A DNA stretch of 64,000 bases, from the NCBI GenBank assembly GCA_021683455.1, contig GCA_021683455.1_3051.1, one strand, 5' to 3'. Position 1 is the stretch's first letter, and every line of letters starts with the position of its first letter. The position numbers and the translations under genes are program-made. Below the pieces are notes generated by a model. That model ran no database searches. It was not told the origin of the DNA and worked only from the letters and a program-made list of their open reading frames with translations. Positions 2,800 through 62,773 of the stretch are shown piece by piece. The DNA is from a phage.

Positions 2800-4365
2800 A
2801 TGACTATCAAAACTAAAGCTGAACTTTTGAACAAATGGAAGCCATTACTGGAAGGTGAAGGTTTACCGGAAATTGCTAATAGCAAACAAGCGATTATCGC
2901 TAAAATCTTTGAAAACCAGGAAAAAGATTTCCAGACAGCTCCGGAATATAAAGACGAAAAAATTGCTCAGGCATTCGGTTCTTTCTTAACAGAAGCTGAA
3001 ATCGGTGGTGACCACGGTTACAATGCTACCAACATCGCTGCAGGTCAGACTTCTGGCGCAGTAACTCAGATTGGCCCAGCTGTTATGGGTATGGTACGTC
3101 GTGCTATTCCTAACCTGATTGCTTTCGATATTTGCGGTGTTCAGCCGATGAACAGCCCGACTGGTCAGGTATTCGCACTTCGTGCGGTATATGGTAAAGA
3201 CCCAATCGCTTCCGGCGCTAAAGAAGCATTCCACCCAATGTATGGTCCAGATGCAATGTTCTCTGGTCAGGGTGCTGCTAAGAAATTCGCTGCTTTGAAA
3301 GCAAGTGATACTCTTGAAGTTGGAACTATTTACACCCACTTCTTCCAGGACACTGGTACTGTGTATCTGCAAGCTACAGAAGCTAAACAAATTGATTCAG
3401 GCGCATCTGACGCAGCTAAATTAGATGCTGAAATTAAGAAACAAATGGAAGCAGGTGTACTGGTAGAAATCGCTGAAGGTATGGCTACTTCTATCGCTGA
3501 ACTCCAGGAAGGTTTTAACGGTTCTACCGATAACCCATGGAATGAAATGGGCTTCCGTATCGATAAGCAAGTTATCGAAGCTAAATCTCGTCAGCTGAAA
3601 GCTGCTTACTCTATTGAATTAGCACAAGACCTCCGCGCTGTTCATGGTATGGATGCTGATGCTGAACTGTCTGGTATTCTGGCTACCGAAATTATGCTGG
3701 AAATCAACCGCGAAGTTGTTGATTGGATTAACTACTCCGCTCAGGTTGGTAAATCTGGTATGACCCTGACTCCGGGTTCTAAAGCTGGTGTATTCGACTT
3801 CCAGGACCCAATCGATATTCGTGGTGCTCGCTGGGCGGGTGAATCCTTTAAAGCTCTGTTGTTCCAGATTGACAAAGAAGCAGTTGAAATTGCTCGTCAA
3901 ACCGGTCGTGGTGAAGGTAACTTCATTATCGCTTCCCGTAACGTAGTTAACGTTCTGGCTTCAGTTGATACCGGCATTTCTTATGCTGCACAAGGTCTGG
4001 CTACCGGCTTTAACACTGATACTACCAAGTCAGTATTTGCTGGTGTTCTGGGTGGTAAATACCGTGTATATATCGACCAGTATGCTAAACAGGATTATTT
4101 CACTGTAGGTTATAAAGGTCCGAACGAAATGGATGCTGGTATTTACTACGCTCCATATGTAGCTCTGACTCCACTGCGTGGTTCTGATCCGAAGAACTTC
4201 CAACCGGTAATGGGGTTCAAAACTCGTTACGGTATCGGTATCAACCCATTTGCAGAATCCGCTGCTCAGGCTCCGGCTTCTCGCATTCAGAGTGGTATGC
4301 CTTCTATCCTGAACAGCCTTGGTAAGAACGCTTACTTCCGCCGTGTATATGTTAAAGGTATCTAA
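2800..4365 (+). CDS. 23: major capsid protein gp23
   Basis: 521-aa ORF, length and sequence character of the T4 major head protein; strong GC-poor codon bias of a highly expressed late gene; followed by a terminator hairpin. Confidence 0.95.
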   Translation: MTIKTKAELLNKWKPLLEGEGLPEIANSKQAIIAKIFENQEKDFQTAPEYKDEKIAQAFGSFLTEAEIGGDHGYNATNIAAGQTSGAVTQIGPAVMGMVRRAIPNLIAFDICGVQPMNSPTGQVFALRAVYGKDPIASGAKEAFHPMYGPDAMFSGQGAAKKFAALKASDTLEVGTIYTHFFQDTGTVYLQATEAKQIDSGASDAAKLDAEIKKQMEAGVLVEIAEGMATSIAELQEGFNGSTDNPWNEMGFRIDKQVIEAKSRQLKAAYSIELAQDLRAVHGMDADAELSGILATEIMLEINREVVDWINYSAQVGKSGMTLTPGSKAGVFDFQDPIDIRGARWAGESFKALLFQIDKEAVEIARQTGRGEGNFIIASRNVVNVLASVDTGISYAAQGLATGFNTDTTKSVFAGVLGGKYRVYIDQYAKQDYFTVGYKGPNEMDAGIYYAPYVALTPLRGSDPKNFQPVMGFKTRYGIGINPFAESAAQAPASRIQSGMPSILNSLGKNAYFRRVYVKGI

Positions 4366-4380
4366 TCTTTGACGATTTAA

Positions 4381-4396
4381 GGGACCTTCGGGTCCC
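4381..4396 (+). terminator. stem-loop terminator after gene 23 (GGGACC-TTCG-GGTCCC)
   Basis: Perfect 6-bp GC-rich stem with TTCG tetraloop followed by T-run. Confidence 0.6.
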
Positions 4397-5761: not shown

Positions 5762-6766
5762 TTAGCTCACCAACTCAATCCAAGCCGGACGAAGTACATC
5801 TTGTACCATTTTAACTAATTCCTTTTTAACCAAAGAAGGATTATCTGCTTGAGTTAGAGCAATACCTTCACGAGAAGTTTCTTCCAAAATATCTTGGACA
5901 GTTAGCCCCATCACCTTTCCAAAATCCTTTGGACCAATTTCGCCAATTTTAGAAATAACGTTATTTACTCGGTTCAGTGTAACGTAACAAGCTAAAATTC
6001 CCACCAATTTGTTATCAGCTTCTGACAATTCAACTTTAGCTTTAATAGGCTTATCAGACTTTTTCTTTTCACTAAATTTAGAATTCTTGCATTTGATGGC
6101 TACACGATTGCGATTAGGCAGCCAAGAAGGATAACAAGGTTTCAATACATATCCTTCAGCGGTAAATACTTCGCCTTTGGCTTCGGCATTCCAAACGCAT
6201 TTATTTGCATCAACTAATCCAGCATGGTCTACTGTAAAATTATAATCTTGGATGACAGAATCTAAATCATTTGGCAATTTAATAAGCTCTTCAAATTTAC
6301 CGCGACCTAAAAGTGGAGCGATTTTAAACCCAAATGAATTACAGAATGATTCCATCATATAATCATCGACATAAGTCACATCACCACTTTCTGTAGTGAC
6401 AATAATGTCAAATACATAAAAATCTTTATCACCATAATCAACATTCTTCTGAATGCCAGGTCCAGCGAATTCGCCAAAGACTTGATAAGATACAACCGCT
6501 GAAGTTTCCATAATATCTTGTACTGCTTTAATGGAATCAGCGTAATTTTTTAGAATAATTTCATACCCAAAGAAATCTTCAGCAGGAAGAATCGGTCCAG
6601 TACGTTTAGCGCAAGTTACTTTATCACGCTCAATAATCAATGAGAAATTTGTGCCGTGAATCTTTTCACGAGCTACCCATTCGCCGCCAGTCAATCCCAA
6701 GCTATAAAGTTTTTCAATAAATTTAGAGTTGTAATGATTTTCAAGACTGCTATACTTTTTAAACAT
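5762..6766 (-). CDS. rnlB: RNA ligase 2
   Basis: 334-aa ORF; N-terminal nucleotidyltransferase lysine motif (REKIHGTNF); length and position downstream of gene 24 as in T4. Confidence 0.85.
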
Positions 6767-7343: not shown

Positions 7344-8762
7344 TTATGGATAAGTATAGATGATACCAGTTTCTAAAGCAGTTTTATGGATGATGTATCC
7401 ATTACGTGATTCTTGAACATCAACTTCTGGATAATCTTTCATCATCTTCTGAAGCGTATAACGATGCAAGTAGTACTTACTATCTGGATCATCAGTTTTC
7501 CAATCTTTACCTTCTTCTGTCATTTTTTGGATTTCATCCATAACCCACCAACCGCACCAGATGTAAGCTGAAGTACGGTGTGGAAGAGGATGAACATAAG
7601 GCAATTCACCTTCTGGTTCCGGAGCAACTTTATCAGTTACCTGAACTTGACCCGTCGTTTTAACTGTTTTGCTATCATAATCAGTAGCAGTAACAGTTGC
7701 CGTAACTTCAATAGTTTGACTTCCAATAGATGAGGTATCAACGGTATATACATTAGTTGACCCTTCTGCAGGAGAAGAATCTTTCTTCCATGAATATTCA
7801 ATTTGCGCTTCTTCTGGAGCACCAGTGACATTAGCGGTAAATGTAGCTGAAGCATCTTGCTGAACGTTAATAGAAGGAGGAGTCAATGTAACCTGTGGAT
7901 TCATTGTCTTCTTATTAACTGTTAATGATACTTCATTAGAAGTAACTTCCTTTTCATTGTAATTTTCTGCTGTTACTTGGGCTACGCATTTAATTCTTTT
8001 TACTCCACTTGTAGTTGGAGTATAGCTAAATGTAGAGTTAGTTTCTCCACCAACTTGAGAATCATCTACATACCATTTATATGTAGCAGACGCTCCATCA
8101 GGTTGAGAAGCTAAGGCAGCAGTAAATTGAACTGGGGTTCCAATTACTCCTGCTGGAGGACTATTAGGAGTTACTGCCAAAGTAGTTGTCTGTGTCTTTT
8201 TATTAACAGTCAGTGATACTTCATTCGAAGTAACGGTTTTTTCATCATAATTTGTCGCGGTTACTTGAGCTACACACTTGATTTTTTTAACTCCGCTGGC
8301 GGCAGGAGTGTAATTAAATGTAGCAGAAGTCGCTTCGTCTACAGGAGAATCGTCAACGTACCATTGATACGTAGCAGATGCACCTGATGGCTGCGAAGCT
8401 AAGGCAGCAGTAAATTTAACAGCTGTTCCGATTACTCCAGCAGCGGGACTATTGGGAGTTACTGCCAATGTAGTTGTCTGAGTTTTATTTTTAACCGTTA
8501 TAGTAGTTGATGCTTGAGCTGTTTCAGGACTACTATCTGCAACTTGGTTTGTTGCAACTACCTTAATAGTCTTTTGACCGGCAGGTCCTTTTAACGTATA
8601 ATCAAAAGTTGCAGACGTTTCTTCCTGCGGTGCATCGTCAACAGTCCAAGCATAGGTAATAGGTCCATCTCCAGTTTGACCACTGGGCGTAGCAGTAAAC
8701 TGCTGAGTCTGATCTATAACTCCAGCAGGTGTTTTAGGAGTTATATCAACTGTAAAAGCCAT
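7344..8762 (-). CDS. hoc: Hoc outer capsid decoration protein, four Ig-like domains plus capsid-binding C-terminal domain
   Basis: 472-aa ORF; four tandem ~95-aa Ig-like modules (two nearly identical) followed by a Trp/Tyr-rich C-terminal domain; position between 24.x ORFs and inh. Confidence 0.85.
   Translation of the reverse strand: MAFTVDITPKTPAGVIDQTQQFTATPSGQTGDGPITYAWTVDDAPQEETSATFDYTLKGPAGQKTIKVVATNQVADSSPETAQASTTITVKNKTQTTTLAVTPNSPAAGVIGTAVKFTAALASQPSGASATYQWYVDDSPVDEATSATFNYTPAASGVKKIKCVAQVTATNYDEKTVTSNEVSLTVNKKTQTTTLAVTPNSPPAGVIGTPVQFTAALASQPDGASATYKWYVDDSQVGGETNSTFSYTPTTSGVKRIKCVAQVTAENYNEKEVTSNEVSLTVNKKTMNPQVTLTPPSINVQQDASATFTANVTGAPEEAQIEYSWKKDSSPAEGSTNVYTVDTSSIGSQTIEVTATVTATDYDSKTVKTTGQVQVTDKVAPEPEGELPYVHPLPHRTSAYIWCGWWVMDEIQKMTEEGKDWKTDDPDSKYYLHRYTLQKMMKDYPEVDVQESRNGYIIHKTALETGIIYTYP
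7917..8492 (-). repeat. tandem ~288-bp duplication inside hoc encoding two near-identical Ig-like domains
   Basis: Protein segments KNKTQTTTLAVTPNSPAAGVIGTAVKFTAALASQP... and NKKTQTTTLAVTPNSPPAGVIGTPVQFTAALASQP... (96 aa each) are ~85 percent identical; DNA copies are likewise near-identical. Confidence 0.85.
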
Positions 8763-20946: not shown

Positions 20947-20950
20947 CAAT

Positions 20951-20968
20951 GGGGACCGAAAGGTCCCC
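20951..20968. terminator. bidirectional terminator hairpin (GGGGACC-GAAA-GGTCCCC) between gene 54 and convergent early ORF
   Basis: 7-bp perfect GC stem, GAAA loop, T-run downstream. Confidence 0.6.
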
Positions 20969-20974
20969 ATATTT

Positions 20975-21265
20975 TTATTTACGGAATGAAATAAAAGCAG
21001 CAACTGAAGAAACAGAGGTTTCTTCAATATAAACCTCAATTTTTACCGGAGCTTCTGACTCAAATTTACCTGTTACTACACCTTGGAAAATACTTTCAGT
21101 CTGTTCTGGCTTTGAAAAATTTTCAGAAGGAAAAATTCCAAACTTTTTATCGGTTCCGAAAATTTTAATAAATTCATCATAAACTGCTTCATTGAAAGCG
21201 TTATCAGCGGGAATAACGCCCTCAACGACGAGTTCTTGACCTAAAAAGCGCAAAGAAGATTTCAT
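20975..21265 (-). CDS. hypothetical protein (alt.-2-like position)
   Basis: 96-aa ORF with its own early promoter and leader. Confidence 0.5.
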   Translation of the reverse strand: MKSSLRFLGQELVVEGVIPADNAFNEAVYDEFIKIFGTDKKFGIFPSENFSKPEQTESIFQGVVTGKFESEAPVKIEVYIEETSVSSVAAFISFRK

Positions 21266-21296
21266 TTTGTGTTCCTCATGTTATGTCAGTAAAACT

Positions 21297-21326
21297 ACTA
21301 TAACACAATACGAGGGACTTGTAAAC
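21297..21326 (-). promoter_or_regulatory. sigma70-like early promoter (GTTTAC-N17-TTATAG) for ORF 20975..21265
   Basis: Minus-strand GTTTACAAGTCCCTCGTATTGTGTTATAGT; near-identical copy upstream of alc at 36586..36615. Confidence 0.55.
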
Positions 21327-23383
21327 TACATTTTGAACTTTTTAGACATTCCGTTGATGTTAACCAAAGAAGCTAAGATTTGAGAAACTTCGCTTTCCTC
21401 TTCTTTTGATTCTTCTACAAGGAATTGATTAAATCTAGCCATTGGACGAACTTCTCCGGTTTCCATCAAATGGTCACCATCATATACCGATTCCTCTAAT
21501 TGTTCAGAAGGAGGAACAATCGTGCCTTCAATTAGATACTTATTATAAGCGGTTTCTTTCATCATGTACGTACTTACTTTATTAATCTTCAGTAAAATTC
21601 CACGTGGTAGAATAACTTCAGCTTCTGATGGAAATCCTGATAAATGACCTGGAACGATAACTTTGATTCGCTCAGCTCCTTTAATTACCATACCCACGCT
21701 AGTTTCAGCATCTTCATTAGCATATGTAGAATGACTACCCATATGCATCAAATCTTCTGCATCAACAGAACCTTCTCCTTCGCCAGAAAATACTGCGCCG
21801 GAATCATCTAGAGCCATATAGTTTTTACCATGCTCACCGAAGATATTTGGTTTAAGCGATGTGGATACGAAGTTCTTGAAATAGAACATTTTATTTTCAA
21901 TGTTATGACGCAAAGTTTTAAAGGTAACTTCTTGTCCACGGTAAAGTGTAGTTCCTGGAGGAAGAACTGAACCTTTAGCGAATGCAGAATCAAGCGTCTC
22001 AATATGTTTAATAGCTCGTTCCATATATTCTTCACGGGTAGAATCTGGTTTACCTAAAAGGAATGAGTTCATTTCAACATATGAATCTGCACAATAATCT
22101 TCAATTACATCAGATTCAGCCTGAGTTAATCCTTTTGGAGTTACTTCAGTACTTGCATATTCATATGCCTGAGCGGCAGATTCATCAATTAATTTATAAA
22201 TTCCATTCATTACAAATTGAATAATAGCTGTCTTTTCATCTGGTGTAGCTTTAGAACCTTTAACTAAATCATTGATAATTTTCTTAATAACATCAAAACT
22301 ATTAGAAATATTAATGTCAGCAAGATCGCTTAAAATTTTATCAGTTTTATAATCAAAGAATTCTTTATTCTTTAAATATTCTTGAGAACCTTGATATGTT
22401 ATATCGCTCTGCAACTTGATAGATGGATCACGTAAACGTGCATGGGCTAATGCAATATGATTTCGGAAACTTTCTAGTTCATAATCGTTAGATTTAAAAC
22501 GAGAAGCACTTCTCATACCACCGATAGCTCCTTTGCTAAAGTTTGAACCAATCTGGATAACCCCGGAGTTCATTGGTCCTTCTGCTTTATACACCGGAAC
22601 TTTAGATTCAAACTCTTGATATTTCTTAGCAGCGAAGCTATCGCCTTGAAGCGAAGCATCGACAGTAGAATATTGAGCTTGTGCTGCTAATCGACGACTA
22701 ATTTTAGTTTTCTGAATAACAGCTTGATCCGTACGCTTATCATTTTCTAAAGCAATAGAAGCAGCAACTGCGACAGCTTTAGGAACAGCATTACCTGTTT
22801 TAACATCTACATAAACATCACCGACCTTCGATTCAACTTTTGTGAATAGCTCTGTTGAAATAGGAGGTACACCTGGAATGTCTTCTAAATTGGCATTTTT
22901 ACGGTAAACCATAATATATGCATATTTCTTATCATAGTCCCAGATTTCCTTTAAAAGAACATATCGACCTGCTCCTTTAGTACGTACTAAGCGGTCAGCA
23001 ATAACTTGCATTTGACGAGCTGCGCCATTTGTTTTACTTTTTAGTACGCGGAATAGGCATGCATCAATTTTATACTGTTTCATTGTTTGAAGAGCAGTAT
23101 CAAAAACAGCATTAATGACGCCAATTGGATTTCCACCCAAGTTTTTAAGCTTAACTAACGATAATTTCTCGTTGACACCTATCATTACGATATGCATCAT
23201 TTTGTCGCCTGGCTTAACGTTTTTATTCGTATCACCACCAGAGGTGTATGTACAAAATCTAAATCCAGGAAGCACGCTTTCTTCACCGGCTTGAATAGCA
23301 AAAATTTGAGGTATTTTATGCTTAGGATTTAAGTTAACAACCGGCGCCGAAGCGCCGTCAAATAATTCTGTAATAAGTTCCAT
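21326..23383 (-). CDS. Alt-family ADP-ribosyltransferase, paralogue 2 (alt.-1 position)
   Basis: 685-aa ORF; N-terminus MELITELFD shared with the adjacent Alt gene; R-S-E ART signature (YRGQ, FVSTSL, EAEVILPRG). Confidence 0.8.
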   Translation of the reverse strand: MELITELFDGASAPVVNLNPKHKIPQIFAIQAGEESVLPGFRFCTYTSGGDTNKNVKPGDKMMHIVMIGVNEKLSLVKLKNLGGNPIGVINAVFDTALQTMKQYKIDACLFRVLKSKTNGAARQMQVIADRLVRTKGAGRYVLLKEIWDYDKKYAYIMVYRKNANLEDIPGVPPISTELFTKVESKVGDVYVDVKTGNAVPKAVAVAASIALENDKRTDQAVIQKTKISRRLAAQAQYSTVDASLQGDSFAAKKYQEFESKVPVYKAEGPMNSGVIQIGSNFSKGAIGGMRSASRFKSNDYELESFRNHIALAHARLRDPSIKLQSDITYQGSQEYLKNKEFFDYKTDKILSDLADINISNSFDVIKKIINDLVKGSKATPDEKTAIIQFVMNGIYKLIDESAAQAYEYASTEVTPKGLTQAESDVIEDYCADSYVEMNSFLLGKPDSTREEYMERAIKHIETLDSAFAKGSVLPPGTTLYRGQEVTFKTLRHNIENKMFYFKNFVSTSLKPNIFGEHGKNYMALDDSGAVFSGEGEGSVDAEDLMHMGSHSTYANEDAETSVGMVIKGAERIKVIVPGHLSGFPSEAEVILPRGILLKINKVSTYMMKETAYNKYLIEGTIVPPSEQLEESVYDGDHLMETGEVRPMARFNQFLVEESKEEESEVSQILASLVNINGMSKKFKM

Positions 23384-23386
23384 GAT

Positions 23387-25483
23387 TTATCCTTGAACGA
23401 ACTTGTAAGGCATGTTTGCAATATCTATGCAAGACGCAATAATTCCAAGAGATGATTCTACTTTTTGTTTAACATTTGATGAAACAAATGATGCAAAGTC
23501 AACTCTGTCTTCTATTTCAATATCACCTGTCATTGCAACTACTTCACCAGTTTCCATTAGACGGTCTCCGTCATAGATTATCGATTCGGTGAGCTCTTCC
23601 GTGGTCATAACTTCAGCTTGAATGAGTTTTGTATTATTAGATGTTGTTCCGTCATTATTAGAAGCATCAGTTATTTTATTAACTTTGACCATCAATCCAC
23701 GCGGTAGAATAACTTCAGCTTCTGTTGCTATTCCGAGACTTCCTGGATATACAACATTAACTTTATGAGCTCCATCAATTGCCCATCCTATTTGAACTTT
23801 AACGTATTCAGGATTTTCTTTATACGCTCTTATTTCGTTTGGATTAATAGTTATTCCTTCTTCATTTTTATCAACTGTTAATTCATTGCGAGCTTCTGGT
23901 TCTAAAAGACCAATACCAGCATGTGTGATTCCAAAACGTCCAAAAATGATAGGAGTTAAAGAAGTAGATACAAAATTTCTGAAGTAGAACACTTTATTTT
24001 TAACTAACGCTTCATATATAGGAGCAGTCATACTTTGAGCACGATAAACTGTAATGCCTTCTGGTATACGGTCACCATTTTCAAAAGCTGAATCTAAGTT
24101 ATTTATAGCAGATTCAATTTCTTTTTCATTCATTACATCATATCGTTCTGGATTGTAACGACCTAAAAGAAGATTATTGATGTCAGTATATCCTGAACCG
24201 CAATATTCTCTAATGCCACGCTTTTGTGATGGAGTATATTTAGAACCATCGCGTGCAATAGTAATATCAATCATTGGACCAGCACCAATTCCAGAAAAAC
24301 TGTAAATCATTCGTTTGAGGAATTTAGTTTTTGCTGCGTTCCAGGAATTTTTAGTTATTTCTTCCCAGACTTCATCTGATTGTCCTTTACGATTTTTATT
24401 ATGATTAGCAAGCCATTTATCTTTATAATCTTCAAAGAATTGATTTACAGCTGCTGCGTATTTCTCTAAACATTTTATTGAAGTAGTTGGTTCATTTTTA
24501 ATTGCATTAAAAATTACTTCTTTAATTTTTTCTGAAACTTCACCGACTTGACTCATTGGAAAGAATTTATAATCATAGTGAAGTTCATCTGCCGTTCCTT
24601 CAGCAATAATTTTTGCTGCCTTTGTTTTAGAAGCTAATGAATTAATTCCAATTTTCATTTCTTCTGCTTCGGGAATTAAAGGTGCAGTAGCTGGTTTATT
24701 AAAATTGGCTGCTGTAGATTCATACTTCTGGAATAATTCACTTTCAAATCTAGAAGATTCCAATGACTGACTTTGTGCAATTGCTCTACGGGAAATTTTA
24801 ACTTTAACGATTACAGCTTGGTCAGAACGTTTATCATTTTCTTGTGCAATAGATGCTGCAATTGCCTCATTTTTAGTTACTTGAGCTCCAGTATCTTTAT
24901 TGATATAAACATCACCGACCTTCGATTCAACTTTAGTAAAGAGCTCTGTACTAATTTCCGGAACTCCTGGAATGTCTTCTAGTGATACATTTTTGCGATG
25001 TATAAGAATATATGCATACTTTTTATCGTAATCCCAGAGTTCCTTAAGAAGGACGTATCTGCCACCTGAACGACTACGGATAAGTCTATCAGCAATAAGT
25101 TGAATTTGTCGAGCTTGACCGGCGGTTTTAGACTTAAGAATACGAAGCATGCAGGCATCAATTTTATATTGACGCATTGTTTGCATTGCAACAGTAAAAA
25201 CTGAATTGATATAATTAATCGGGCTTGGACCAAGACCTTTTAATTTAGCAATTGAACCTTTAGCAGTTAATGTAAAAGGAACAATATGCATCATTTTATC
25301 GCCCATCTTTAAATCGCGATTAGTATCACCTCCAGATGTATATGTACATAAACGAAAGCCTGGCTGTTCAATTGCATCATCAACATGAACTGAAAAAATT
25401 TGCGGTATTTTCTTCTTTGGATTTAAGTTTGTAATCGGAAGAGTAGTATCTTCGTCAAATAATTCTGTAATAAGTTCCATCAT
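23387..25483 (-). CDS. alt: Alt ADP-ribosyltransferase (packaged internal head protein)
   Basis: 698-aa ORF adjacent to gene 30; R-S-E ART signature (YRAQ, FVSTSL, EAEVILPRG); preceded by a TATAAATA late promoter. Confidence 0.8.
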   Translation of the reverse strand: MMELITELFDEDTTLPITNLNPKKKIPQIFSVHVDDAIEQPGFRLCTYTSGGDTNRDLKMGDKMMHIVPFTLTAKGSIAKLKGLGPSPINYINSVFTVAMQTMRQYKIDACMLRILKSKTAGQARQIQLIADRLIRSRSGGRYVLLKELWDYDKKYAYILIHRKNVSLEDIPGVPEISTELFTKVESKVGDVYINKDTGAQVTKNEAIAASIAQENDKRSDQAVIVKVKISRRAIAQSQSLESSRFESELFQKYESTAANFNKPATAPLIPEAEEMKIGINSLASKTKAAKIIAEGTADELHYDYKFFPMSQVGEVSEKIKEVIFNAIKNEPTTSIKCLEKYAAAVNQFFEDYKDKWLANHNKNRKGQSDEVWEEITKNSWNAAKTKFLKRMIYSFSGIGAGPMIDITIARDGSKYTPSQKRGIREYCGSGYTDINNLLLGRYNPERYDVMNEKEIESAINNLDSAFENGDRIPEGITVYRAQSMTAPIYEALVKNKVFYFRNFVSTSLTPIIFGRFGITHAGIGLLEPEARNELTVDKNEEGITINPNEIRAYKENPEYVKVQIGWAIDGAHKVNVVYPGSLGIATEAEVILPRGLMVKVNKITDASNNDGTTSNNTKLIQAEVMTTEELTESIIYDGDRLMETGEVVAMTGDIEIEDRVDFASFVSSNVKQKVESSLGIIASCIDIANMPYKFVQG

Positions 25484-25503: not shown

Positions 25504-25511
25504 TATTTATA
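25504..25511 (-). promoter_or_regulatory. late promoter TATAAATA (minus strand) upstream of alt
   Basis: Reverse complement of 25504..25511 is TATAAATA, about 20 nt upstream of the alt ATG. Confidence 0.55.
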
Positions 25512-29867: not shown

Positions 29868-29896
29868 ATAATATCATATCCTGTACCAAAGTAAAC
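29868..29896 (-). promoter_or_regulatory. sigma70-like early promoter (GTTTAC-N17-TATTAT)
   Basis: Minus-strand GTTTACTTTGGTACAGGATATGATATTAT upstream of ORF 29465..29830. Confidence 0.5.
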
Positions 29897-35710: not shown

Positions 35711-36060
35711 TTAGAAAGGTCCTGGATGTCTTCTGCGAACTTGTTGAAGGAGTTGTTGATTTGTTTTTCAACCAATCCTGGCTTACGAGCCACCACATCC
35801 GCCTTCTTTGCGTCTTTGCGCAGTTTTTCATTTTCACGCTCAATAGCAGCAATCGCCTCACGATTTTTATTATTCATCGCATCAATATAATTATACTGAA
35901 TTCGCAAATTATTTAATGCTAAAGCGTTTTTATTGGCCGTTTTTGTAATTTCAGTAACTGATGTTTCTAATCTTTCTACCTTATTTTTTAAAATAATAGA
36001 TGTTCCGCCTAATGCTATTACAATTAATAGCAAACCTGCTGTAGTATTACTTAATTGCAT
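35707..36060 (-). CDS. inner-membrane spanin (Rz-like)
   Basis: 117-aa ORF; N-terminal transmembrane helix (AGLLLIVIALGGTSIIL) followed by a charged coiled-coil region; overlaps the lipoprotein gene start. Confidence 0.55.
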   Translation of the reverse strand: MQLSNTTAGLLLIVIALGGTSIILKNKVERLETSVTEITKTANKNALALNNLRIQYNYIDAMNNKNREAIAAIERENEKLRKDAKKADVVARKPGLVEKQINNSFNKFAEDIQDLSK

Positions 36061-36557
36061 AAAGTTTTAATAACCTCTACAATATCATCTTGAGAAAGAC
36101 CGTTAATTAAAATATGATGTTCAGCCGGAGATTTAGAAATTTTAAAGCACGCCGCAACATCTTCTGCCATATCAGATGCGCTACGATTTGGATTACTAAT
36201 TCCAAGACGATGCTTTCCAGTCAAAGGATTAACGATGATATAGCATTTACAGCTATTAATGTGAACATTAGGTTGAGTCTGATTAATGAATACTTCACAA
36301 TCGTATTTCGCAAACTGATTTTCTAAAAAGACTTTCATCTCCTCAACCGCATCGGGAAGCATATCACGGGCTTGCTCAAGACGACGATTTCGATATTCTT
36401 TAGTGGTCGTTTTCCGTTTGACTTGCTTCGCTAAATCTTTCTTAAGATCGGTGATATATCCAACTCGACGATTTCCTTTGAATACAGAAATCCCATCTGT
36501 AGTATCACCGTATGCTTCAACGACCATTTCAGTAGTAATAAGCTGCAAATCCATCAT
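36051..36557 (-). CDS. alc: Alc-like protein (inhibitor of host transcription; assignment by size and synteny)
   Basis: 168-aa ORF between the pseT.x/spanin ORFs and rnlA; preceded by an early promoter and conserved leader. Confidence 0.55.
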   Translation of the reverse strand: MMDLQLITTEMVVEAYGDTTDGISVFKGNRRVGYITDLKKDLAKQVKRKTTTKEYRNRRLEQARDMLPDAVEEMKVFLENQFAKYDCEVFINQTQPNVHINSCKCYIIVNPLTGKHRLGISNPNRSASDMAEDVAACFKISKSPAEHHILINGLSQDDIVEVIKTLCN

Positions 36558-36585
36558 AAAGTCCTCATGTTATGTCAGTAAGACT

Positions 36586-36615
36586 ACTATAACACAACAT
36601 GAGGGACTTGTAAAC
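36586..36615 (-). promoter_or_regulatory. sigma70-like early promoter (GTTTAC-N17-TTATAG) for alc
   Basis: Minus-strand GTTTACAAGTCCCTCATGTTGTGTTATAGT; promoter plus leader near-identical to 21266..21326. Confidence 0.55.
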
Positions 36616-36618
36616 AGC

Positions 36619-38210
<1,592 letters not shown>

Positions 38211-44971: not shown

Positions 44972-44999
44972 TTTATTCTCCTCAGTAGTTGATAGGGTA

Positions 45000-45029
45000 A
45001 TAGTATCACACTACTACCCTGTTGTAAAC
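45000..45029 (-). promoter_or_regulatory. sigma70-like early promoter (GTTTAC-N18-TACTAT)
   Basis: Minus-strand GTTTACAACAGGGTAGTAGTGTGATACTAT upstream of ORF 44729..44971. Confidence 0.5.
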
Positions 45030-45955: not shown

Positions 45956-45998
45956 ATTATTTTCCTCTTTAATCATCAGCAGTATTGCCGATAGTTGT

Positions 45999-46028
45999 AT
46001 AGTACCATAAAGCCTTATGTTTGTAAAC
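45999..46028 (-). promoter_or_regulatory. sigma70-like early promoter with AT-rich upstream element (GTTTAC-N18-TACTAT)
   Basis: Minus-strand GTTTACAAACATAAGGCTTTATGGTACTAT preceded by TTTTTTTATTTCAAAATTTTTTTCACAAAAC; near-identical copy at 62693..62752. Confidence 0.55.
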
Positions 46029-46060
46029 CGTTTTGTGAAAAAAATTTTGAAATAAAAAAA

Positions 46061-46079
46061 GGGGACCTCTAGGGTCCCC
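46061..46079 (-). terminator. stem-loop terminator downstream of gene 32 (GGGGACC-loop-GGTCCCC)
   Basis: 7-bp GC stem flanked by A/T runs, 20 nt 3-prime of the gene 32 stop. Confidence 0.55.
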
Positions 46080-62651: not shown

Positions 62652-62692
62652 TTTCTAATCTCCGTAATTCTGTATCAGTAGTTGATAGTTGT

Positions 62693-62722
62693 ATAGTACC
62701 ACAGTATGCTTTGGTTGTAAAC
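62693..62722 (-). promoter_or_regulatory. sigma70-like early promoter for motA with AT-rich upstream element (GTTTAC-N18-TACTAT)
   Basis: Minus-strand GTTTACAACCAAAGCATACTGTGGTACTAT preceded by TTTTTTATTTCAAAATTTTTTTCACAAAAC; paralogous to 45999..46058. Confidence 0.55.
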
Positions 62723-62753
62723 CGTTTTGTGAAAAAAATTTTGAAATAAAAAA

Positions 62754-62773
62754 GGGAGAGCCGAGGCTCTCCC
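62754..62773 (-). terminator. stem-loop terminator (GGGAGAGCC-GAG-GCTCTCCC)
   Basis: 8-9 bp GC-rich stem flanked by A-run/T-run, 3-prime of the small ORF after gene 52. Confidence 0.55.

Follow-up and report, generated by a model that had tools for sequence, protein, structure and literature searches.

A cassette of 54 nucleotides (nt), made up of an early promoter and the leader that carries the ribosome-binding site, occurs twice on the minus strand of the stretch of phage DNA analysed here (64,000 nt of GenBank assembly GCA_021683455.1, contig GCA_021683455.1_3051.1; hereafter the window), once in front of alt.-3 and once in front of alc (the gene names alt.-3, alt.-2, alc and rnlA were given by comparison with RB51 and T4). 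In RNA that reads through from upstream, the cassette is predicted to fold into a hairpin in which its promoter half pairs with its leader half, Shine-Dalgarno sequence included. What the analysis established directly is the repeat, its promoter consensus, the hairpin as a prediction, and the covariation of the hairpin arms across genera at alc. As to what the hairpin does, we lean, with modest confidence, towards translational gating, i.e., that read-through RNA would hide the ribosome-binding site, RNA from the cassette's own promoter would expose it, and synthesis of the protein would follow the early promoter.

The 54-nt cassette and its predicted hairpin

The pair had been picked out by an earlier note made from the letters of the window alone, and the pattern search, the repeat search and the shuffles all agree with it. 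The pattern search returned exactly two matches in the 64-kb window and none in 100 dinucleotide-preserving shuffles of it, and the repeat search recovered the same pair as family D8, 94% identical; no third site in the window matched at more than 30 of the 54 positions. The first copy lies where the note had placed it, and the second begins at 36562, the 36565 given for it having been a shift of 3 nt. The copies agree at 51 of 54 positions (the mismatches are cassette positions 16, 18 and 34), from a left border at the G of GTTTAC to a right border directly after GAGGA. Past GAGGA the flanks are unrelated (CTTTATG vs. ACACAAAATG), the last 4-7 nt ahead of the two start codons bearing no relation between the copies, and at the other end the upstream stop codons lie 0-4 nt before both cassettes. 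The features of the two copies are listed here, with the promoter elements as found by a consensus scan.

21273-21326, minus strand: cassette copy 1 (alt.-3), GTTTACAAGTCCCTCGTATTGTGTTATAGTAGTTTTACTGACATAACATGAGGA; the alt.-2 stop codon TAG ends on its first G
21320-21325, minus strand: -35 hexamer TTTACA of the alt.-3 cassette
21297-21305, minus strand: extended -10 TGtTATAGT of the alt.-3 cassette; predicted start, by spacing, the A at 21290
21273-21277, minus strand: Shine-Dalgarno GAGGA of alt.-3, at the end of the leader
21271-21318, minus strand: predicted hairpin of alt.-3, weakened by an A.C mismatch (G18A)
36562-36615, minus strand: cassette copy 2 (alc), GTTTACAAGTCCCTCATGTTGTGTTATAGTAGTCTTACTGACATAACATGAGGA; within the rnlA-alc gap it extends from 3 nt past the rnlA stop codon through the Shine-Dalgarno
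36609-36614, minus strand: -35 hexamer TTTACA of the alc cassette
36586-36594, minus strand: extended -10 TGtTATAGT of the alc cassette
36562-36566, minus strand: Shine-Dalgarno GAGGA of alc, inside the 3' arm of the hairpin
36559-36609, minus strand: predicted hairpin of alc (5' arm 36585-36609, loop 36581-36584, 3' arm 36559-36580)

In both copies the scan found the -35 hexamer TTTACA, a 17-nt spacer and TGtTATAGT, i.e., a TG-extended -10 with the hexamer TATAGT, giving 10 of 12 matches to the consensus. Judged by its sequence, each copy is a T4-type early (sigma-70) promoter followed by a leader of ~20 nt that ends in the Shine-Dalgarno GAGGA. The promoter call of the earlier note was essentially right, including the minus-strand promoter-plus-leader arrangement in front of alt.-3 and alc and the 17-bp spacer; its hexamers, GTTTAC and TTATAG, give way to TTTACA and TATAGT, since TTATAG is a one-base shift with only two of six consensus positions. 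For alc, transcription is predicted to start at the A at 36579, 7 nt past the hexamer, a placement made from the spacing and from a conserved (C/T)TTAC context in other genera. No late promoter (TATAAATA) occurs inside either cassette, the nested promoter being early sigma-70. A-tracts lie upstream of both copies, within the upstream coding sequences, as a candidate A/T-rich UP-like region. Identity between the copies reaches well past the consensus promoter positions, beyond the contacts made by the polymerase, as had been claimed for it.

When folded as RNA, cassette positions 7-31 (the spacer and the -10) pair with positions 36-57 (the whole leader and the Shine-Dalgarno). On this account the leaders would be identical because each leader position also pairs with a promoter position, and because the alt.-3 copy derives from an alc-type cassette. 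The stability predicted for read-through RNA in the window and in T4 was as follows.

alc, window: -27.7 kcal/mol, z -4.9, none of 200 shuffles as stable
alt.-3, window: -16.8 kcal/mol, z -2.3
alc, T4: -24.7 kcal/mol, z -3.6
alt.-3, T4: -23.0 kcal/mol, z -4.9

The leader RNA of the cassette's own promoter, starting at about position 37, the first base of the 3' arm, was essentially unstructured (0 to -1.8 kcal/mol). For alc in the window, the computed probability that the Shine-Dalgarno is unpaired was 0.03 in read-through RNA vs. 0.67 in own-promoter RNA, and over the eight genera described below the computed values for alc were 0.00-0.03 vs. 0.31-0.80. At the alt.-3 copy there is also an alternative partner for the 5' arm (21302-21313), namely AACACAAAATGA at 21262-21273, which holds the alt.-3 start codon and is complementary at 10 of 12 positions.

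Other identities were considered for the element. An intrinsic terminator was rejected, as the stem is followed by no U-tract (it continues into CUUUAUGAUGG at alc or ACACAAAAUG at alt.-3) and a terminator scan made no call at either cassette, and a scan of Rfam 15 gave only chance-level hairpin matches of 15-23 bits, vs. gathering scores of 50-135. The note had suggested a shared post-transcriptional control site, and this survives in the form of a hairpin acting in cis, for which the fold and the covariation at alc both argue. As a site for a factor acting in trans it was dropped: the Tequatrovirus cassette holds no GGAG for RegB, and no recognisable A/U-rich operator of the RegA type was seen by eye around the AUG.

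Covariation at alc and recurrence of the design

The rnlA-alc gaps of other genera were fetched by tblastn with Alc, and the layout of the alc cassette, i.e., GTTTAC, the 5' arm, the -10 and then the 3' arm with the Shine-Dalgarno, was found in Tequatrovirus, Gelderlandvirus, Jiaodavirus, Karamvirus, Dhakavirus, Bragavirus, Kanagawavirus and Winklervirus. The arm sequences differ among these genera, e.g., ATCTCCGTTTAGTT/AACTAAACGGAGAT, ATCCTCATCAG/CTGATGAGGAT and AACCTCTCATTTTTA/(T)GAAAATGAGAGGTT, and the hairpins of the eight scored z of -4.1 to -5.7 against shuffles. Aligned with MAFFT, 12 regions upstream of alc gave no consensus structure in RNAalifold because the pairing register moves by 2-3 nt between genera, and this approach was replaced by an alignment-free test in which each spacer was paired with every leader and own duplexes were compared with cross duplexes. 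The own spacer-leader duplexes of the eight genera summed to -163.6 kcal/mol vs. a permuted mean of -93.3 (standard deviation 11.9), a total that 1 of 100,000 permutations reached. The pairing at alc is, in short, kept by covariation in eight genera. Phages of Acinetobacter and Aeromonas have other arrangements instead of the alc pairing.

A further observation was made in the Salmonella phage Melville, where a hairpin promoter pairing spacer with Shine-Dalgarno lies at ~6520-6586 on the minus strand, upstream of CPT_Melville_206 (duplex -18.1 kcal/mol); with this second site, the design in other genera is not limited to alc.

Nor is it limited to the duplicated pair in T4 itself. In seven of the 33 GTTTAC-type cassettes of T4 early regions, the spacer forms a duplex with its own leader at -16 kcal/mol or below, as against 0.22 expected from cross-pairings, and none of 20,000 permutations reached the observed T4 duplex total. 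The seven precede regB, denV, ndd.4, alc, motB.2, alt.-3 and nrdC.8. Besides alc and alt.-3, the other five have duplexes of -16 to -21 kcal/mol and hairpin z of -4.2 to -5.8; the position of the G of GTTTAC in T4 (AF158101) is given for each.

62797: regB
65413: denV
166807: ndd.4
8218: motB.2
53943: nrdC.8

The strongest T4 cassettes of this design in the scan were those of regB and denV, and for both there is a precedent in the sequence record X04567 (T4 58.3-65.5 kb; Valerie et al. 1986). At 1726-1768 and 4334-4392 of X04567.1 the record marks 'imperfect inverted repeats' C/C' (denV) and D/D' (ORF 61.9, an open reading frame that is regB), and these share the architecture of our cassettes, with one arm after the -35, the -10 enclosed and the ribosome-binding site in the second arm. 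They differ in belonging to other genes and having other sequences, and they are not duplicates of each other.

Two other groups of early promoters were noticed in the window. The first is a second repeated cassette family of 76 nt, 86% identical between 45990-46065 and 62684-62759, with a related similarity between 44982-45013 and 62675-62706; its promoters lie at 46028 and 62722 on the minus strand, and the similarity continues upstream of the -35, where it takes in a stretch rich in A/T and a run rich in G. The second comprises the minus-strand promoters at 29896, 33311 and 45029, in which a palindrome pairs the spacer with +1 to +10 and not with the Shine-Dalgarno, e.g., GGTACAGG...CCTGTACC; these match the subclass 'stem-loop overlapping the -10' of the PeSL cassettes, to which we return below.

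Distribution, origin and setting of the two copies

Many Tequatrovirus genomes, KIT03, RB51 and wV7 among them, match the window around the cassettes at 96-97% identity, and on this sequence evidence the window is a Tequatrovirus. In T4 both copies are present at the corresponding loci and differ from each other at one base. A blastn search with the 54-mer hit 500 phage records, all T4-like, at 999 places in total (about two per genome); the best places were all 90% identical or more, and wherever the flank of a copy was read, the gene after it was alc or alt.-3. The search for further copies that the earlier note had proposed thus added none in the window and about two each in T4 and related genomes, and pattern scans of IMG/VR and of metagenomes, in which most hits were chance matches and a few were T4-like contigs, showed no copy that was additional or had moved.

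Twenty-three copies were read base by base. Both loci have one consensus, GTTTACAAGTCCCTCGTGTTGTGTTATAGTAGTCTTACTGACATAACATGAGGA, with 11 variable positions, and in all four variant-bearing genomes with both copies read, the variants are confined to one copy. Ongoing gene conversion between the copies was rejected on that ground, variants being private to one copy wherever both were read and one varies. From these sequences the pair appears to be an old, fixed feature of the genus with no sign of ongoing gene conversion or mobility. Among the natural variants are two of the -10, viz. TACAGT in two alc copies (from IMG/VR and metagenome contigs) and, in one alt.-3 copy, TATAAT, which matches the consensus perfectly, and a loop change, G32A, that recurs at both loci in different genomes.

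The history of the alt.-3 copy can be read from other genera. The alt.-3 gene of RB69, VR25, Melville and WG01 is preceded by an early promoter of its own, in which the spacer contains a small hairpin, and by a conserved leader, ..AACATGAGGAA..ATGAAATCT, and within those genomes the alc and alt.-3 cassettes are ~55-75% alike, vs. 94-98% in Tequatrovirus. Since the alt.-3 promoter of the other genera is a different one, Tequatrovirus alt.-3 probably acquired an alc-type cassette once. On the simplest reading of the sequences, the ancestor of Tequatrovirus would have swapped the alt.-3 promoter for an alc-type cassette in an exchange bounded by the shared GTTTAC and ATGAGGA. The proposal that the repeat is a recombination substrate moving gene modules is borne out to this extent, as history, in one past transfer to alt.-3; as a source of present variation or mobility it fails, given about two fixed copies per genome. 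Genes 30 and 31, both essential, lie in the 15.3 kb that separates the direct repeats. A viable deletion between the repeats was accordingly discarded, as a crossover loss of ~15 kb would take both genes.

RB69 offers an observation of a similar kind at alc. Its alc leader, CAACAACACGAGGAG (RB69 1443-1510), is perfectly complementary to the 5' arm of T4 (duplex -19.8 kcal/mol), and its alc spacer holds a local hairpin resembling those of the alt.-3 promoters, which suggests that the promoter half was swapped in Mosigvirus.

The genes and signals around the two cassettes are these.

20975-21265, minus strand: alt.-3 (96 amino acids), the gene after copy 1
21326-23383, minus strand: alt.-2, a full-length Alt paralogue of 685 amino acids that adjoins the alt.-3 cassette upstream
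25504-25511, minus strand: late-promoter consensus TATAAATA, just upstream of alt (23387-25483)
20949-20970, no strand assigned: bidirectional terminator-like hairpin in the gap between gene 54 and alt.-3, at the end of the leftward transcription unit
36051-36557, minus strand: alc (168 amino acids), the gene after copy 2
36619-37779, minus strand: rnlA (RNA ligase 1, gp63), upstream of the alc cassette

The true start of rnlA is probably the ATG at 37743. In T4, alt.-3 is a non-essential early gene (PMC11618068). The late-promoter consensus at 25504-25511 is the likely source of late read-through RNA over alt, alt.-2 and alt.-3; given its place before alt, late RNA should cross alt.-2 into alt.-3 and end at the terminator-like hairpin of 20949-20970. 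A terminator scan of the rnlA-alc interval predicted none, which together with the late promoter ahead of alt makes read-through into both cassettes plausible. The Alt paralogues themselves vary: in the window, as in RB51, alt.-2 is full-length, in T4 nothing but short remnants is left (alt.-1 and alt.-2, T4 2066-2451), and WG01 has three Alt paralogues in series. Elsewhere in the window, 7905-8480 is a tandem direct repeat of 288 nt, its two copies 77% identical and apparently within a coding region.

Proposed translational gating, its rivals and known systems

From the folds and the setting we infer a transcription start site, read-through transcription and an effect on translation, which would combine as follows. 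RNA begun upstream (from rnlA into alc, or from alt and alt.-2 into alt.-3) would carry both arms, and the long hairpin would bury the ribosome-binding site; RNA from the cassette's own promoter, starting at about position 37, would have only the 3' arm and be open to ribosomes. Alc, and in Tequatrovirus also Alt.-3, would then be made mainly from immediate-early transcripts of their own promoters, with later read-through adding little. The logic would be that of T4 e, soc, 49 and I-TevI, with the difference that the hairpin would enclose an early promoter and not a late one. T4 omics data class the RNA and the protein of alc and alt.-3 alike as early, and the upstream genes as later (rnlA early in RNA and late in protein; denA and alt middle in RNA and late in protein; PMC9697503 supplements).

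Several findings weigh against gating. In the window the accessibility of the alt.-3 Shine-Dalgarno is nearly equal in the two RNAs (0.20 in read-through vs. 0.26 in own-promoter RNA), the stem there being broken by the G-to-A change, and gating at this copy may be weak, or the hairpin may be a passenger of the duplication; in four other genera, moreover, alt.-3 is without any spacer-to-Shine-Dalgarno pairing. Even at alc the hairpin is dispensable in some lineages, as RB69 (Mosigvirus) has lost it (z -0.2), that of Marfavirus is weak, and Gaprivervirus has another open reading frame at the position of the alc cassette. Within Tequatrovirus, five substitutions keep the pairing and two break it, which for a sparse sample of 23 copies and 11 variable sites is near the level expected by chance from transitions. 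Sense and antisense folding show no consistent preference across genera (T4 favours the sense strand, -24.4 vs. -15.4, and Melville the antisense). Lastly, the depositors of X04567 labelled the denV and regB hairpins 'pot. transcription terminator' of the upstream gene.

That label leads to the likeliest rival, an insulator of transcription units, in which the stem-loop would be a terminator or attenuator, or a stabiliser of the 3' end of rnlA and alt.-2 mRNA, and its overlap with the Shine-Dalgarno incidental. The stem-loops of PeSL cassettes in RB49/phi1 lowered lacZ expression as the rrnB T1 terminator did (PMC2839356), X04567 regards the equivalent hairpins as potential terminators, and both cassettes begin 0-4 nt from an upstream stop codon. 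We nevertheless think insulation unlikely, as the stems of the eight genera and of the seven T4 cassettes all lack a U-run behind them, the terminator scan was silent at both cassettes, and the Shine-Dalgarno always lies in the 3' arm, where a pure terminator or stabiliser would have no need of it. A plainer rival dispenses with function altogether: a strong early promoter duplicated in the ancestor of Tequatrovirus has diverged little, and the hairpin does nothing at alt.-3 and perhaps little at alc. With genomes of the genus ~95-97% identical over the region, 54 nt should differ by only 1-3 bases, and the variants private to single copies (no concerted evolution) and the want of such a hairpin at alt.-3 in other genera agree with this. 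It leaves unexplained, however, both the pairing at alc with different sequences in eight genera and the surplus in T4 of self-complementary cassettes (7 found vs. 0.22 expected), and we consider it improbable.

We hold just as little confidence in the hairpin acting in some other way on read-through RNA, whether by coupling translation to the upstream reading frame or by shielding the Shine-Dalgarno from RegB or other nucleases. Upstream stop codons 0-4 nt ahead of the cassettes would suit it, secondary structure inhibits RegB and the GGAG of denV is resistant in vivo (PMC1702504), and several genera have GGAG in the 3' arm; the Tequatrovirus cassette, however, has GAGGA and no GGAG to shield, and by geometry a ribosome ending at the rnlA stop codon would touch only the base of the stem, leaving intact the 12-bp core with the Shine-Dalgarno. 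Least probable is that the repeat is kept as a patch of homology for recombination that shuffles gene modules, on the PeSL model. One historical transfer of a cassette to alt.-3 is likely, the number of paralogues in the alt region varies, and PeSL-mediated exchange is documented in RB49/phi1 and inferred in PST/T4 (PMC2839356, PMC4122927). Against this stand the 999 places in 500 genomes at about two each, with all flanks read being alc or alt.-3, the lack of extra or moved copies in the IMG/VR and metagenome scans, and the lethality that a 15.3-kb deletion with genes 30 and 31 would entail.

Translational gating can be extended into a broader proposal, to which we give tentative credence, somewhat short of even. 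In it alc and alt.-3 would be the duplicated members of a portable Tevenvirinae class of self-complementary early promoter-leader modules, whose 5' untranslated region is the reverse complement of the promoter core and which may make up about one-fifth of T4 early promoters (regB, denV, ndd.4, motB.2, nrdC.8, alc and alt.-3), serving as temporal gates in cis. Translation would take place only from the proximal immediate-early transcript, the same gene being silent on delayed-early, middle and late read-through RNA. If this were true, the class would mirror the gate at gene e, which opens only late, and the 'potential terminators' of X04567 would be mainly translational devices. Gating as such, if correct, would provide a simple rule in cis by which early proteins made in a short burst (Alc, RegB and others) are confined to that burst despite long units that are still being transcribed, and a strong early promoter, ribosome-binding site and temporal gate would be movable between genes as a single block of 54 nt. 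If gating is wrong, what is left is a conserved, duplicated early promoter of PeSL type, ordinary for this group of phages.

The element falls within known kinds, viz. T4 early promoters, PeSL-type cassettes and nested-promoter hairpins over ribosome-binding sites. Of the 'uber' UP/-35/TGn/-10 architecture of T4 early promoters (Hinton 2010, PMC2988021), the cassette has the -35/TGn/-10 part, and the T4 early consensus accounts for only the ~55-75% identity of alc and alt.-3 cassettes in other genera, not for the 94-98% in Tequatrovirus. The cassette also fits the PeSL consensus of PST/T4, TTTACW-N17-TAYWAT (PMC4122927), save for one -10 position. Like the PeSL cassettes (Arbiol et al. 2010, PMC2839356; Comeau et al. 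2014, PMC4122927), it is a compact intergenic unit that begins at the upstream stop codon, comprises a strong sigma-70-like early promoter, a stem-loop, a Shine-Dalgarno and a start codon, and is repeated within the genome. The five PeSL subclasses have the stem-loop upstream of the -35, over the -35, between the -35 and -10, over the -10, or just before the start site (PMC2839356), whereas the stem of our cassette runs from just after the -35 to the Shine-Dalgarno, across the start site, with the transcribed leader as its 3' arm. The PeSL stem-loop, which in RB49/phi1 cut downstream lacZ as strongly as the rrnB T1 terminator (PMC2839356), is interpreted as a terminator, and the PeSL cassette as a linker for recombination, with exchange documented in RB49/phi1 and in PST/T4 drawn from genome comparison (PMC2839356, PMC4122927). 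The present cassette lacks a U-tract, and its copies occupy two fixed loci; exchange of modules among close relatives, a PeSL trait, was not found, a single ancient transfer being all that the sequences imply.

The closest functional parallel is with e, soc, 49 and I-TevI of T4, in which long transcripts begun upstream bury the Shine-Dalgarno or AUG in a helix (Uzan & Miller 2010, PMC3014915), and a promoter within the region of the 5' strand gives rise to transcripts that lack that strand and are translated (PMC3014915). In the cassette, likewise, the Shine-Dalgarno is paired in upstream-initiated RNA (in silico), the structure is conserved at alc in eight genera, and the -10 lies in the 5' arm, such that by geometry, and with a predicted start, its own transcripts would lack that arm. 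The nested promoter of the four T4 genes is a late one (TATAAATA) and their translation late-only, whereas that of the cassette is early sigma-70 and translation is predicted to be early-only; the T4 cases are backed by toeprinting or genetics, and gating by the cassette is a proposal from sequence and folding. The review of T4 post-transcriptional control names only e, soc, 49 and I-TevI as hairpins of this nested-promoter kind, with mobE in its references and alc unmentioned (PMC3014915), and the T4 records in the phage collection annotate no regulatory feature at the rnlA-alc gap, although an earlier description of the promoters or of the hairpin may still exist. Against these precedents, what is new here is the exact duplication of the cassette, the covariation of its arms across genera at alc, and the hypothesis of a gate that would be open only early.

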